DNA of 20,000 nt from an uncultured virus (IMG/VR IMGVR_UViG_3300011834_000039) (IMGVR_UViG_3300011834_000039); one strand, 5' to 3'; positions 10,353 through 14,901 are shown, counted from the first letter of the stretch. The notes: a model not told the origin generated them from the letters alone. Numbers and translations are program-made.

Positions 10353-11035
10353 GCTGCCTCGCCCAACGGTACAATGATTGCTGGATCAGCTTCGATGCAA
10401 GCACGAGCGCGCAAAGTCCAGCAAATGCCGCGCGTTAAATCTCTCCCATTGGCAAGCCATCGCAAGGCATTAATCATGCTCGCGTTTGTGGGGCGCTTTC
10501 CGACCGGAATGGCCAACAAATTGCACAGATCGCGCAATTCCTCGTGCCAGAGAATTTGAAGCGCGGTGTCAGGCAGTGGAGCAAAATGCGCTTGCTGAGG
10601 GGTTTTCCATTTATCAAGCCAGTCATAGCCCCTGTTCATAGCCCGCGATTTTTGCGGGTAGCACCAAATATTGCTGGCATGTTTATAATGTTCTGGCCAA
10701 TCGTACCGAAAATATGCGCCGTCCCGCTCGAAATGGGCTGCATGCATATTGGTCGGATATTCAACGAGGAATTTCTCGTGCAACACGGCGAGCGCATGAT
10801 GCGAGACGCGCTGCATAGCGTTCATCTGGCTATCGAGCCGATCAAGCTTGTCTTTGGCCGACTTGATTTCAACCGCGATGATTTCAGCACGGTCTACTGC
10901 CATCACATCAATGCGGTTTCCGCCAAAAGAGGCATTAATTTCGTGGATGATGCGCGCGTCTGGTCGATGCTGGCGCAAAAAGGCCACAACAGCGTCACGA
11001 ATTTCACCCTCTGCAGAGGATCGATAAGCGGGCAT
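10349..11035 (-). CDS. PD-(D/E)xK nuclease-fold protein (MmcB/Sce7726-like)
   Basis: IIHEI...RIDVMAV...IIAVEIKSAKDKLDRLDSQ restriction-endonuclease-like motif. Confidence 0.7.
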   Translation of the reverse strand: MPAYRSSAEGEIRDAVVAFLRQHRPDARIIHEINASFGGNRIDVMAVDRAEIIAVEIKSAKDKLDRLDSQMNAMQRVSHHALAVLHEKFLVEYPTNMHAAHFERDGAYFRYDWPEHYKHASNIWCYPQKSRAMNRGYDWLDKWKTPQQAHFAPLPDTALQILWHEELRDLCNLLAIPVGKRPTNASMINALRWLANGRDLTRGICWTLRARACIEADPAIIVPLGEAA

Positions 11036-12342
11036 TATTCAGCCCTCCCATCGACTTCATATCCCCATACATCCCAGCCGGGGCGCTTGCGGCGCGCGTT
11101 CAATTCCAGCTTTGGGAGATCCGGATAAAATTTCTCGATCTGCTCGGCGAAATACTCCGGCTTGGCGGAGTGTTCGCCCTTCTTTTCGACATAGACCGTC
11201 GGCGGCAGCATTTCCGGCAACGGACACGCGACCTCGCCGCGCCGTCCGATCAGCAGTAGTTCATGCCGGTCCCTGCCCCAATAGCCGGTGCCGATATCGA
11301 CCTTGTCCCAAACCCAGTGATGCACATAGGTGAAGCCGCAAGCCTGCATAACCCGAAGCGAATCCAGCAACATCGGATTTGTAGCCCAAAGGAACAGTAC
11401 AGCAGGATGACTACCACCGATCAGCTCCACCATCTGGGCGACAATTTCGTCGGTGGTCATCGTCGGATAGTGATTCTCGGCACTCTTTTCGCGCCCTGTC
11501 ACTTCCGAATGAACCTGAAATTTCCATGCCGGATCTGCATAATACACCGGATAGAGCCGATCCAGCTTTGCCGGTGCCGTCGCCTTACCGCGCTCGGCGG
11601 TCAGTGCCATTTCCGTAAGTCTGACAGCGTGGCGCACCTTCTGTTGCTGGGCGCGAATGCTCTTGTTCTCGACTTTGATGCGCTTTTCTTCCGCCAGCGC
11701 ACCCTCGACCCACGCAATTTGCGCAACATCCGACGGCAGAGCCTTGAGGCGATCCAGCGTAACTCCATTATCGAGCCGGGTGCCCCGCAGCTTGTCGAGC
11801 GCCGCCTTGCAGATCTTCTCGCCGCGCTCGGCATCACGTCGAATGCTTCGTTCCGGCTTTCCCGTCAGCTCTGCTGTGGCGGCTACAAAGCTCTTGCGTT
11901 CCGACCGGTCGACCAAGTGGCCAACTTGGCCGCTTGATTTGCGGTCGCCACCGTGTCCCGTTTCCGGGTATTTCAGGAGGTAAAGTTCCTTGCGCCGGAA
12001 AACAAACATGGCGCGATCAGCTGGCGTCAGTTCGGCACGGGCAAGATTCTCGTCGATCTCCCAAAGCTCGGCATCGAGCGCGCTTTCTTTTCGCACAAAT
12101 GCCGAGATTTCCTCCCAGCCTATGGCAAGCGCAGCAGCCACCCGGTGGGCACCCGCCGACAAAATGTAAGGCGATGCGCCCTTGCGTTTGCTGTCGTTTG
12201 CCCGGACCGTGATCGGCGTCCGCAAACCCAGCTCAGCGAAGGAGGGCTTCAACGCCTCAACCTTCGCCGGATCCACATCGCGCAGGCGCTTGCCCGTATC
12301 GATATCGGCTATCCGGATCATTTCAGGTAATAGCGCGTCCAT
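11035..12342 (-). CDS. ParB/Srx N-terminal domain fused to an MT-A70 family N6-adenine methyltransferase
   Basis: GLRTPITV...LSAGAHRVAA...WEIDENLARAELTP (ParB-like) and YYADPAW, HYPTM, LFLWAT, GTGYWGR, HSAKP, GWDVWG (MT-A70). Probable start MDALLP at 12342. Confidence 0.9.
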   Translation of the reverse strand: MDALLPEMIRIADIDTGKRLRDVDPAKVEALKPSFAELGLRTPITVRANDSKRKGASPYILSAGAHRVAAALAIGWEEISAFVRKESALDAELWEIDENLARAELTPADRAMFVFRRKELYLLKYPETGHGGDRKSSGQVGHLVDRSERKSFVAATAELTGKPERSIRRDAERGEKICKAALDKLRGTRLDNGVTLDRLKALPSDVAQIAWVEGALAEEKRIKVENKSIRAQQQKVRHAVRLTEMALTAERGKATAPAKLDRLYPVYYADPAWKFQVHSEVTGREKSAENHYPTMTTDEIVAQMVELIGGSHPAVLFLWATNPMLLDSLRVMQACGFTYVHHWVWDKVDIGTGYWGRDRHELLLIGRRGEVACPLPEMLPPTVYVEKKGEHSAKPEYFAEQIEKFYPDLPKLELNARRKRPGWDVWGYEVDGRAE

Positions 12343-12343
12343 G

Positions 12344-12457
12344 TCACCGCCCCGCAAGAAACAGAAAGAAGATGAGAAAAGCCGCGACTGGTGACTCAGC
12401 AACCAACGCGGCACAAACGATCAGCGCGACCTCGCGCGGCTGGAAACGAGCGGTCAT
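12344..12457 (-). CDS. Small hydrophobic protein (37 aa, not in the ORF track)
   Basis: MTARFQPREVALIVCAALVAESPVAAFLIFFLFLAGR*; ATGA overlap with the upstream gene and fills the gap before the ParB/MT-A70 gene. Confidence 0.55.
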   Translation of the reverse strand: MTARFQPREVALIVCAALVAESPVAAFLIFFLFLAGR

Positions 12458-12720
12458 GGACCGATCCGCCGAAGCGGCTCCCTGCCATGCATCTTGCGAA
12501 AATCGTCGCGCAGCTCGGCCAGCTTTTCCCAGCCGGTGACCTGCCAGCGTCCATCAAACCGCTTGATGGCAAAGCGATTGCCCTTGCGCCGAACCTCGAC
12601 GCCAAACCCAAGCAGTTCATATTGCGTGGCATCAAAACTGGATCTGGCACCGGATTCGAAGCGACGAGGCCCGCCATTTGCAGCCAACCATTGCTCTACG
12701 AGTGAGGAAACAGCGGTCAT
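12454..12720 (-). CDS. Hypothetical phage protein
   Basis: 88 aa (VEQWLAANGGPRRFE...), ATGA-coupled to the CII-like gene. Confidence 0.75.
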   Translation of the reverse strand: MTAVSSLVEQWLAANGGPRRFESGARSSFDATQYELLGFGVEVRRKGNRFAIKRFDGRWQVTGWEKLAELRDDFRKMHGREPLRRIGP

Positions 12721-13193
12721 TTTCCTGCCTCCAGACGCAGCAATACGTCCTCCAGCGCTCGGATCGCCTCGCGTACTTCCTTGGTGATTTCCCGCTTTTC
12801 ACCCGCGTCAATGCGTCCATCTTCCAGCGCCGTAACGATGGATTTCGAAACGTCCATCGTCTCGGACATGACGCGGTGTGCATCCATTTCCGTGAGGGGC
12901 ACATTGTCGGGGGCTTTCATAGCCCCGGATGTTGCCGGGACAAGTTCATATCCGAGCAATCCGGCTGCGGCCTTTATGATCGTCGGTGTTTTCGCACGCC
13001 GGTCGACCTCGACCGCGACATCAATCGGCATGAAGCTGTCGGCATGTTCTTCGCCAAACGATGCGTACTTGGAAAGCGTCGACACGCCGACACGGGTAAA
13101 GGGCACGATGCAGGAAATGCCGCCCGACAGCATGTATGCGCCATCGGTAGCAGACTTGAGGGAACGCTGTTCTTGCTCGGAAATTGTGCGCAC
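12717..13193 (-). CDS. Phage regulatory protein, CII-like
   Basis: GTG start after AGGGG SD; RVGVSTLSKYAS HTH and ALEDGRIDAGE motif; position downstream of cro. Confidence 0.7.
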   Translation of the reverse strand: MRTISEQEQRSLKSATDGAYMLSGGISCIVPFTRVGVSTLSKYASFGEEHADSFMPIDVAVEVDRRAKTPTIIKAAAGLLGYELVPATSGAMKAPDNVPLTEMDAHRVMSETMDVSKSIVTALEDGRIDAGEKREITKEVREAIRALEDVLLRLEAGK

Positions 13194-13326
13194 GGAAACA
13201 CCCCTGAAAATTTCAAGGAAAAAAGTTCGTCAAAGGATTCGATGAAGTTGGTCAGCCCAGCCGGTACGACTGAGAAATCAGATTAACCAGGTGGCCCACA
13301 GGCTGAGGAAACGACCGATGAAGTCA

Positions 13327-13866
13327 TTACACCGCACTCCCCAGAACAGAGGATGCCGGGGCGCGTCCGGCGTCGTCCTTACGGCGCGCCCCGACATTTA
13401 CGCCCGATGGGAGGATATCAGGCGATTTCGAAACATCGGGGAGCACAGCAGAAGTATGAAATGCTGCACCCCCCTCACCGCCCGAGCCGGAGAAGTCGGG
13501 CGATTGGAAACTGGTTGCAGGAGCGGGATTCGAACCCGCGACCTGTTGGGTATGAACCAACTGAGCTACCGCTGCTCTATCCTGCGACAAAGAAGCTGGA
13601 GCGTCCGAGGGCGGCAGGGACGCTCCAGCATCGCCCGCAGAGGAACATGCGGGCGATACGAGAGGCGGACCAAAAACATCAGGGCGTAAAAGGTGACGGG
13701 AGATACCCGTCAGGCGCTCTACTTCCAATACGCGCTCCGGCGGCACGACAAACCACTGGTTTACCGCTTGAGGTGTAATGCGAAGCGCACGTGCCAATGA
13801 GCTGGCACCTTCTGCCCGTTCTTTAGCGGCCTCTAGGGCCTGATGCATTTCGTTTTTGTCAGCCAT
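13327..13866 (-). CDS. Cro/YdaS-like HTH regulator with a long low-complexity C-terminal extension
   Basis: GASSLARALRITPQAVNQW..VPPERVLEVERLTGISRHLLRPDVFG is a Cro/YdaS-type domain divergent from cI. Probable start ATG 13866; no in-frame stop until 13327. Confidence 0.85.
   Translation of the reverse strand: MADKNEMHQALEAAKERAEGASSLARALRITPQAVNQWFVVPPERVLEVERLTGISRHLLRPDVFGPPLVSPACSSAGDAGASLPPSDAPASLSQDRAAVAQLVHTQQVAGSNPAPATSFQSPDFSGSGGEGGAAFHTSAVLPDVSKSPDILPSGVNVGARRKDDAGRAPASSVLGSAV
13512..13586 (-). tRNA. tRNA-Met(CAU), initiator-like, with encoded CCA
   Basis: CGCAGGA TA GAGC AGCGGTA GCTC A GTTGG TTCATAC CCAAC AGGTC GCGGG TTCGAAT CCCGC TCCTGCA ACCA: complete 75-nt cloverleaf with C1:A72 mismatch and A11:U24. 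Confidence 0.95.
13587..13629 (-). terminator. Terminator-like hairpin (tR1-like position) just 5' of the tRNA
   Basis: Perfect 12-bp stem GCTGGAGCGTCC/GGACGCTCCAGC followed by TTCTTTGT on the minus strand. Confidence 0.5.
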
Positions 13867-13913
13867 GCTGATTTTTAAAGCATAGCTTTCATTGCAATGC
13901 AAGGAATTCTTAA
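13867..13913 (-). promoter_or_regulatory. PR-like promoter with two operator sites
   Basis: CTTGCA-N17-CTTTAA (rhizobial sigma70 consensus CTTGAC-N17-CTATAT); palindrome AAAGC-ATA-GCTTT at 13877-13889 and a degenerate copy at 13900-13912. Confidence 0.72.
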
Positions 13914-14645
13914 ATGGACGAAATTATCCACATTGAGTCACATCCCAATATGGATGAGACACAACTCGCTCTGAAAATCGGAACGGCTTTGCGGACTGCT
14001 AGAAAGCAGCGCGGCCTTGTCATGCGCGACATCGCACAGGCTGCGGGCGTGAGCACAGGTGCCGTGGGCAACTGGGAACGCGGCGCAAATGTCATGTCGA
14101 TGGAAAACTTGCAGGCCGTGGCGAGCTATCTTGAGATTGACCCCATCGCACTTAGCAAAGGCGATGTGAAATTCTTATCCGAGACGCAGCCGGTCTCGGA
14201 TGCTGAAATAATCTCGGATGCTGGCCACATTGACACCGGCCCACTTGATGTAGAGATCCTTGGCGTTGCAGTCGGCGGCGACGACGGTGACTTCACTCTT
14301 AATGGAGAAGTCTCTGGATACGCACGTCGCCCAGCAGGGATCGCGCACCTTAGAAAAGTATTTGCACTTCATGTTCTTAGCGACAGCATGGTTCCCCGGT
14401 ATGAACCCGGAGAACTGCTATATTGCGGCGGACGTGACGCCGTTTCTGGAGACGATGTAGTCATCGAAATGTTTCCAGAGCAAGGCGAAACCGTCGGCAA
14501 AGCATACATCAAAAGACTAGTGAAACGCTCGAAAACCGAAATTGTCTGCAAGCAGTACAACCCTGCAAAAGAACTTATCTTCGATCCATACGCCATCAAG
14601 AATATGTGGCGCGTGATACCTACGCGCGAGCTTCTCGGCTATTGA
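13914..14645 (+). CDS. cI: CI-like repressor (XRE HTH plus S24 peptidase domain)
   Basis: LRTARKQRGLVMRDIAQAAGVSTGAVGNWERG HTH; SDSMVPRY (catalytic Ser) and YIKRL (catalytic Lys). Alternative start at 13950. Confidence 0.93.
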   Translation: MDEIIHIESHPNMDETQLALKIGTALRTARKQRGLVMRDIAQAAGVSTGAVGNWERGANVMSMENLQAVASYLEIDPIALSKGDVKFLSETQPVSDAEIISDAGHIDTGPLDVEILGVAVGGDDGDFTLNGEVSGYARRPAGIAHLRKVFALHVLSDSMVPRYEPGELLYCGGRDAVSGDDVVIEMFPEQGETVGKAYIKRLVKRSKTEIVCKQYNPAKELIFDPYAIKNMWRVIPTRELLGY

Positions 14646-14901
14646 TTGCATAAGCTTCTGCATAAATTCGAGCAGTTGAACTGACGTACGTTGGGTTCAG
14701 GCTAATGTTGCGCCCTGGCAACCCTTCATCCCGGCAACCAGCACAAAATAACTTTAGTCCCAACTGACGAATCGTCGTTTTGGGACCTATGCCAACACGA
14801 TACAAATCGTGAGGCTTACGCCATCTGATACGCCCGCAATCTGCACACTCGATCTCAATTACCGACGTAGATCCTACGGTTGGCTCCTGCACACAAGACA
14901 T
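14620..14901 (-). CDS. Small Zn-finger-like protein (CADC...CAGC), convergent with cI
   Basis: Two CxxC pairs; ATG at 14901 (alternative GTG at 14913); preceded by a LexA box. Confidence 0.72.
   Translation of the reverse strand: MSCVQEPTVGSTSVIEIECADCGRIRWRKPHDLYRVGIGPKTTIRQLGLKLFCAGCRDEGLPGRNISLNPTYVSSTARIYAEAYAINSREARA

Follow-up and report, generated by a model that had tools for sequence, protein, structure and literature searches.

The window, that is, the whole stretch of 20,000 nucleotides from an uncultured virus that was analyzed, is part of a lambdoid-type provirus. On its minus strand, a cro-like gene is followed by a cassette composed of a tRNA gene and six hairpins, and then by a cII-like gene, a ParB-methyltransferase gene, a methyltransferase gene and an O-like replication initiator gene; genes for a Q-like antiterminator, terminase, portal and protease/capsid proteins lie further downstream. 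With cro, the cassette, cII, replication, the Q-like antiterminator and packaging in this order, the location of the cassette is the early rightward operon of a lambdoid-type prophage. One of the early genes (11035-12414, minus strand) encodes a protein of 459 amino acids in which a ParB N-terminal domain is fused to an MT-A70 methyltransferase. A promoter scan of positions 12500-14800 returned no promoter-like site, and a terminator scan of the same region returned one terminator-like site, unrelated to the cassette. The elements of the locus are the following:

13914..14645, plus strand: cI-like repressor gene, divergent from cro (Pfam HTH_3 and Peptidase_S24; PHROG transcriptional repressor)
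13327..13866, minus strand: cro-like ORF of 179 codons and a TAA, spanning the whole cassette (ORF call, translation)
13666..13824, minus strand: Cro/YdaS DNA-binding domain, amino acids 15-67 (PF15943, 50.8 bits; PF14549, 31.3 bits)
13628..13659, minus strand: hairpin H1, whose first TCG is the conserved left edge of the cassette and always a whole codon (local folding)
about 13595..13629, minus strand: hairpin H2, with a GC-rich stem of 10-12 bp and a loop of 11 nt (local folding; covariation)
13587..13594, minus strand: T-rich spacer TTCTTTGT between H2 and tRNA position 1 (sequence)
13512..13586, minus strand: tRNA-Met(CAT) with encoded CCA (ARAGORN; Rfam RF00005, 64.6 bits against a gathering cut-off of 29)
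13477..13504, minus strand: hairpin H3 (local folding)
13438..13474, minus strand: hairpin H4 (local folding)
13421..13498, minus strand: segment of 78 nt (26 codons) with H3 and H4, flanked by the direct repeat AATCGCC (relatives; joint 13420/13499)
13401..13424, minus strand: hairpin H5 (local folding; alignment of relatives)
13353..13397, minus strand: hairpin H6, 17 pairs (local folding; alignment of relatives)
13337..13342, minus strand: Shine-Dalgarno-like GGGGAG, 9 nt before the restart ATG (sequence; relatives)
13283..13327, minus strand: mini-ORF of 14 codons, whose ATG (13327-13325) overlaps the TAA at 13329-13327; relatives have this ORF too, with the same ACGPP ending
12717..13193, minus strand: cII-like activator gene with a GTG start (Pfam Phage_CP76; PHROG CII-like)

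The open frame of the cro-like gene extends over positions 13327-13902 of the minus strand, and from the ATG at 13866 it encodes 179 amino acids before the TAA at 13329-13327. Both Pfam matches exceed their gathering cut-offs (30 for PF15943 and 30.2 for PF14549) and are limited to amino acids 15-67, the remainder of the ORF corresponding to the hairpins and the tRNA. As expected of the Cro/YdaS family, the gene is divergent from a cI-like repressor and lies upstream of cII; members of this family are also expected to be short proteins that end near the domain, which does not hold for an ORF of 179 amino acids. In distant Cro relatives without the cassette, the stop codon is located 1-16 amino acids past the matched domain, and in 13 of 30 such genes it overlaps or abuts an ATG, so that tight spacing to the next start looks ancestral. 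According to the original prediction, no stop follows the Cro domain and the frame remains open through the tRNA and all six hairpins, and this was confirmed by the ORF call, Pfam, ARAGORN, Rfam and folding. In the window alone, 112 stop-free codons are obtained with P = 0.10 by Markov resampling, and three of the six frames are free of stops across this stretch. Since these values are compatible with chance, the question is settled by comparison with relatives, and it is solely from this comparison that the open frame would draw its significance.

Two TAG triplets, at tRNA positions 8-10 and 19-21, leave only one of the three frames of the tRNA gene open. The cloverleaf is kept in the alignment, where sequence groups differ by paired changes in the stems of the D, anticodon and T arms, and in the Rfam scan no family besides tRNA reached the threshold. 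Bacterial initiator tRNA-fMet is marked by a mismatch at 1:72, by A11:U24 and by three G:C pairs closing the anticodon stem. The window tRNA has a C1xA72 mismatch, A11:T24 and two of the three G:C pairs beside the anticodon loop; all three pairs are present at the base of the anticodon stem in the relatives of group B (e.g. L058 and L062). By these marks the phage tRNA-Met is a candidate for the initiator type, and it may supply or replace initiator tRNA in infection. No close counterpart was present among the host tRNAs recovered, and BLAST comparisons were uninformative for its identity, as the matches to host tRNAs covered only the T-arm of Pro, Ser and Trp tRNAs, and those to E. coli were to a plasmid tRNA-Asn. 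When three host genomes were searched with the tRNA, one full-length copy per genome was found.

Local folding placed two hairpins before the tRNA and four after it, at positions almost identical to those claimed previously. The six stems contain eight G-U pairs on the minus strand. The folding energy is -161.4 kcal/mol for the minus strand versus -141.6 kcal/mol for the plus strand, and comparison of the whole-region fold with shuffled sequences gives z = -6.9 and z = -5.95, respectively. In alignments of 21-24 sequences, pairs altered on both sides (e.g. CG to UA and GC to AU) are present in H2, H5 and H6, and many one-sided changes produce a G-U pair on the cro strand, where the opposite strand would have a C-A mismatch. 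These compensatory and G-U-preserving changes support the earlier proposal that the RNA of the cro strand is selected, and they point to an RNA structure under selection on this strand. The 78-nt unit with H3 and H4 is carried by the window, L055 and L063 and is missing from most relatives, its gain or loss amounting to exactly 26 codons.

H2 followed by TTCTTTGT looks like a terminator, and TTCTTTGT would form the 5' leader of an RNase P substrate. Compared with an intrinsic terminator, the element has a GC-rich stem of 10-12 bp and the T-rich spacer, but its loop has 11 nt; it was not reported by the terminator scan because the loop limit of the scan was 8 nt. In some relatives the T-tract after H2 is short or poor (e.g. 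ATCT and ATTC). A canonical terminator, with a stem and T7, lies inside the ORF that spans the tRNA in L019, a locus of the second architecture described below.

A protein search revealed many proteins of 130-180 amino acids with a common tail. As such a search is biased, finding open frames only, it was not used for counts, and DNA collections were scanned instead with a pattern of the tRNA only. These scans yielded four loci in species genomes, 19 in viral contigs and 12 in metagenome contigs, i.e. 36 loci with the window, corresponding to 25 unique sequences; since the close relatives have a common ancestry, the loci do not amount to 36 independent trials, and independence applies rather to about 7-9 gene junctions, some 13 indel classes and two architectures. 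The closest record to the window is a provirus with 93-96% identity across the cassette region. The prophages with the cassette are of a Brucella/Ochrobactrum type, and the named genomes in which it was found belong to Brucella (formerly Ochrobactrum) tritici, B. pecoris and, in addition, two Rhizobiales. In contigs of four public runs, the variants of this DNA were the short form without the 78 nt, a form with another upstream gene, and one replacement of 896 letters.

In all 36 loci, the only stop-free frame of the tRNA stays open over 92 or more codons on the upstream side and 56 or more on the downstream side. At each of the 23 unique direct junctions, no stop separates a small gene in the cro position from H1, which is entered in codon phase 0; the initial TCG of H1 is a whole codon every time. 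A stop right after the Cro domain in close relatives had been set beforehand as the finding that would speak against the original prediction; the alignment of cro loci that it called for revealed no such stop in nine of nine close relatives or at any of the 23 unique direct junctions. The 23 junction genes fall into seven clusters, mutually unrelated by BLASTP (E<1e-3). Eight types of upstream gene were compared with Pfam: four were above the curated cut-off (three HTH_3 and one YdaS), two had HTH/Cro matches below the cut-off only, and two had no match at E<=0.01. The cassette can be closely aligned across loci whose upstream genes are unrelated, and a swapping of modules at the H1 edge is expected to leave just such unrelated genes in front of a conserved cassette. 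This edge, as a point where unrelated immunity genes are swapped, bears on the recombination of phage modules.

The alignment of the cassette itself contains 14 gap classes, 13 of which are multiples of three (lengths of 3, 6, 9 and 78 nt), and the single other class is located past H6, beyond the end of homology. Among 24 sequences, stop sites were absent from frame 0 and numbered three in frame +1 and 14 in frame +2, 15 of them being polymorphic. When the 190 variant alleles were placed randomly, 3.6 stop gains were expected in frame 0, with P(0) = 0.0185, a modest result if this test is taken alone. Variable columns are distributed over the three codon positions as 14:13:18 in H1-H2 and 24:25:26 after the tRNA. 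This even spread indicates that the frame is kept and the peptide is not, and the tail peptide varies freely between groups. The codon-aligned antisense frame is likewise open in most sequences, and part of the openness may stem from composition and hairpin symmetry. That frame was also considered as an antisense gene and rejected: it is interrupted within the cassette in at least four of 25 sequences, its start and end are not conserved, and we read it as a by-product.

It is necessary to mention two exceptions, both of which count against the interpretation that we favor below; in both, the open frame upstream of the tRNA is merely the antisense of another gene. In L054 (seven loci with one sequence), the gene in the cro position stops about 380 nt upstream, and a gene on the opposite strand intervenes. 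In L059, an insert of about 600 nt with two genes separates H2 from the tRNA, and the gene in the cro position reads through H1-H2 and stops on ATGA. In L059, at 740-880 and around the tRNA, each edge of the insert carries a copy of the first 6-7 tRNA bases, which looks like the trace of something that integrated into the 5' end of the tRNA.

The far end of the long ORF is equally regular. Its stop codon overlaps an ATG in all 25 unique sequences (ATGA or TGATG in 14, TAATG in eight and ATGGCTGA in three), and just upstream of this ATG a purine-rich, Shine-Dalgarno-like run (GGGGAG, GGAGG or GAGG) is present in 19 of the 21 aligned sequences, the two others being L053 and L054, whose own stop codon lies beyond the end of their alignment. 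The restart ATG of other variants opens a membrane-like protein of 83 amino acids; in the window only the 14-codon ORF is coupled, and it ends 88 nt before cII, which we count against the favored interpretation. The mini-ORF ends with ACGPP, one variable residue and the stop, and is followed by a conserved stretch (13194-13282, minus strand) with two TTGAC-like repeats before the start of cII, which could be a promoter or a regulator-binding site. In L061, L076 and L085, the mini-ORF is followed by a canonical intrinsic terminator (GC stem, TTTT loop and T-run) directly before the next ribosome-binding site, and this looks like a tR1-style element.

A broader tRNA pattern retrieved 60 viral loci, which included 37 unique ones not obtained before, and revealed a second architecture, which includes L019 (Cro identity of 51%). 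Here the cro-like gene has its own stop codon, within ATGA, and a relay ORF of 64-125 amino acids, which starts at the overlapping ATG, crosses the tRNA in the same tRNA frame. This arrangement is found downstream of at least six different genes. When 62 unique loci were scored for an ORF that starts upstream and runs across the tRNA, all 31 that have a cII-like gene downstream had one, against 20 of the 31 in other contexts. The criterion is lenient and the base rate, judged by the latter value, high, but the result shows that members of this tRNA family also occur without a covering ORF. The anatomy of the cassette and the constraints on its evolution, as described up to this point, are observed in the loci themselves.

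Since both architectures carry ribosomes from a cro-like gene across the tRNA cassette, we take the passage of ribosomes as the selected property. The interpretation that we favor, and consider somewhat more probable than not on the basis of the sequence comparisons, is that the tRNA and the hairpins form a translated, structured cassette in which ribosome passage, and not the peptide, is selected. We infer the translation itself, the RNA processing and the regulatory consequence as follows. A ribosome would begin at the cro-like gene, pass the DNA-binding domain without stopping, melt H1, H2, the tRNA sequence and H3-H6, and terminate at the TAA at 13329-13327, where the overlapping ATG with its Shine-Dalgarno-like run would permit a restart. 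Probably, this passage would serve to cover with ribosomes a stretch of about 340 nt of RNA that is terminator-like and folds strongly, so that transcription and translation on the cII side would depend on the translation of cro. Folding of the tRNA and its excision by RNase P would be possible only on RNA vacated by ribosomes, and, as a side effect, transcripts cut at the tRNA would leave a hairpin-capped cro message without a stop codon.

Several known arrangements share parts of this organization. In translational coupling, as known from phage and bacterial operons with ATGA or TAATG overlaps, translation restarts on an overlapping ATG, and the cassette resembles it in that the long ORF ends on such an ATG, preceded by a Shine-Dalgarno-like run, in each of the 25 sequences, and in that the cro-like gene of the second architecture is linked by ATGA; here, however, a ribosome would have to traverse hairpins and an entire tRNA gene, about 340 nt in all, before it reaches this ATG, and in the window the restart leads into an ORF of only 14 codons. 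In attenuation of the pyrBI type, a leader ORF runs through a terminator hairpin, and a closely following ribosome suppresses termination. The cassette ORF similarly covers terminator-like hairpins (H2 with its T-run in the window, and the stem with T7 in L019), but it is the regulator gene itself and no short leader, and termination is putative in this case. The region between cro and cII is where nutR and tR1 of phage lambda and putR of HK022 are located, and translation into nutR is harmful in lambda. The cassette shares this operon position and the structured RNA downstream of cro; in contrast to nutR, translation through it appears to be conserved, as judged from the frame, and only the tRNA reaches the Rfam threshold. 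Finally, tRNA genes serve as processing punctuation in mRNAs, as in the mitochondrial punctuation model and the tRNA-tufB operon. The tRNA of the cassette likewise has a protein gene on either side within one polycistronic transcript, but whereas the known tRNAs are located between ORFs, this one is located inside an ORF and in frame.

An extension of the favored interpretation, which we put forward tentatively and regard as doubtful, is that a functional tRNA gene of the initiator type is placed in frame within a translated ORF in order to make ribosome traffic and the maturation of the tRNA mutually exclusive, which would form a translation-sensing switch at the lysis-lysogeny decision. As long as cro is translated, the tRNA would be unable to fold and ribosomes would be relayed to the cII side. 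If initiation drops, through starvation or an attack on the host initiator tRNA, the cassette would fold; RNase P would then free the phage tRNA and sever cro from cII, and the stop-less cro message would be directed to tmRNA. The position between cro and cII is where lambda-type phages balance lysis and lysogeny, and the cassette may tie this balance to the translation state of the cell.

The original prediction placed its emphasis on the last of these events. As a selected function, cleavage by RNase P or termination after H2 would generate a cro mRNA without a stop, and Cro would be tagged by tmRNA and degraded, its level being tied to tRNA processing or to ribosome-rescue capacity in the manner of arfA and brfA. 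The accessible sections of the source on these two genes describe a stem-loop or terminator inside the ORF, a non-stop mRNA and control by tmRNA (PMC8012679), which provides a precedent. The cassette ORF is similar in that stem-loops and a probable RNA cleavage site precede its stop (H1, H2, the spacer and the 5' end of the tRNA). No stop intervenes between the Cro domain and the tRNA at any of the 23 unique direct junctions, and H2 with TTCTTTGT, immediately 5' of tRNA position 1, would cap the 3' end of the cut message. Such a function would, however, require a stop-less stretch only before the tRNA, so that the constraints after the tRNA go beyond it; it neither needs nor predicts a conserved frame there or an overlap of stop and start at the far end. 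In arfA and brfA, as far as the accessible sections of the source go, the part of the ORF after the hairpin is dispensable, whereas here the frame after the tRNA is constrained and ends on a restart site. In the second architecture, moreover, the cro-like gene has its own stop and would escape tagging, yet an ORF across the tRNA is kept, and some relatives have only a short or poor T-tract after H2. The conserved frame after the tRNA, the restart overlap in 25 of 25 sequences and the second architecture thus leave tagging by tmRNA unsupported as the main purpose of the arrangement, for which we consider it unlikely; a non-stop effect on transcripts cut at the tRNA is possible as a side effect.

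Also improbable in our judgment, but a fair rival, is that the cassette is a tolerated in-frame insertion, i.e. a selfish or merely useful insert of tRNA and palindromes at the 3' end of cro with no regulatory role, of which only the in-frame, stop-free copies survive, the others being polar on downstream genes. Such an origin would agree with the short Cro relatives without the cassette, which end 1-16 amino acids past the domain with 13 of 30 stops at or on an ATG, and with the two-hairpin unit of 78 nt that is gained or lost between direct repeats. In-frame palindromic elements are known, since the Rickettsia palindromic elements (RPEs) are described, in the accessible part of the source, as in-frame insertions of hairpin-forming repeats into protein genes (PMC10969869). 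The cassette resembles RPEs, as presented in that part, in being palindromic DNA within an ORF, compatible with translation, with a unit that comes and goes in frame; unlike them, it occupies a fixed position in the operon, carries a tRNA gene and gives no sign of adding a conserved peptide. RPEs and MITEs are also expected in many copies dispersed over unrelated genes of a genome, whereas the cassette is not dispersed, as judged from a search of three host genomes with its tRNA, each of which gave one full-length match. Its fixed position and its covarying, conserved hairpins argue for a function rather than for a parasite, and the core prediction of the insertion, selection for the passage of ribosomes, is common to the interpretation that we favor.

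That the extension is a protein tail with a function of its own, such as a degron on Cro or a disordered linker, and that the RNA structures merely share its DNA, seems to us very unlikely. The frame is conserved, and Ser, Pro, Ala and Gly abound in the tail as they do in disordered regions; against this, substitutions are flat over the codon positions, the peptide varies freely among groups, one and the same tail stands behind seven unrelated DNA-binding genes, and in the second architecture it is a separate ORF. Least probable, and strongly disfavored, is chance, by which the cro stop would have been lost in GC-rich, stop-poor palindromic DNA and this state inherited by the relatives: the value of P of about 0.10, the three open frames of six and the antisense frame open in most relatives would agree with it, but seven unrelated upstream families all enter in phase and stop-less, 13 of 14 indel classes are multiples of three, new stops arise in frames +1 and +2 and never in frame 0, stop and ATG overlap in 25 of 25 sequences, and the antisense frame, broken in at least four of 25, has no conserved ends. 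The simple loss of the cro stop in GC-rich DNA, which had been offered as the alternative to the original prediction, is rejected, since in none of the close relatives is the Cro domain directly followed by a stop.

In searches of open-access text, no report of a translated phage ORF containing a tRNA gene was found. In the accessible sections of the BiPBO1 paper, a tRNA is mentioned solely as an attachment site (PMC4729917), and those of the Patience paper present embedded out-of-frame ORFs and no tRNA within an ORF (PMC4324244). The cassette, as we interpret it, would be a conserved same-strand overlap of a tRNA gene and a translated reading frame.

The arrangement has a consequence for annotation, as databases carry proteins with a translated tRNA and other pipelines will truncate the ORF at the tRNA. 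At least 48 cluster representatives, of 98-314 amino acids, are present in protein databases, and among the 22 inspected there are proteins with a C-terminal part that is the translated tRNA and hairpins, joined to unrelated N-terminal domains. Among public proteins named "Cro/CI family" or "helix-turn-helix", there are chimeras whose C-terminal 60-110 residues are translated tRNA and hairpins, and these deserve a flag in annotation.

Among 50,697 records of isolated phages, 22 matched the 2-kb region, and in the 20 matches listed the similarity comprised only the tRNA, with at most 85% identity. The best match was Ochrobactrum phage POI1126, whose tRNA is found in a different context, beside capsid genes. 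This tRNA (L003:2315-2585; 84.7% identity), the most similar one in an isolated phage, is partly covered by the hypothetical ORF gp08, which extends over the first 15 bases of the tRNA and stops within it.
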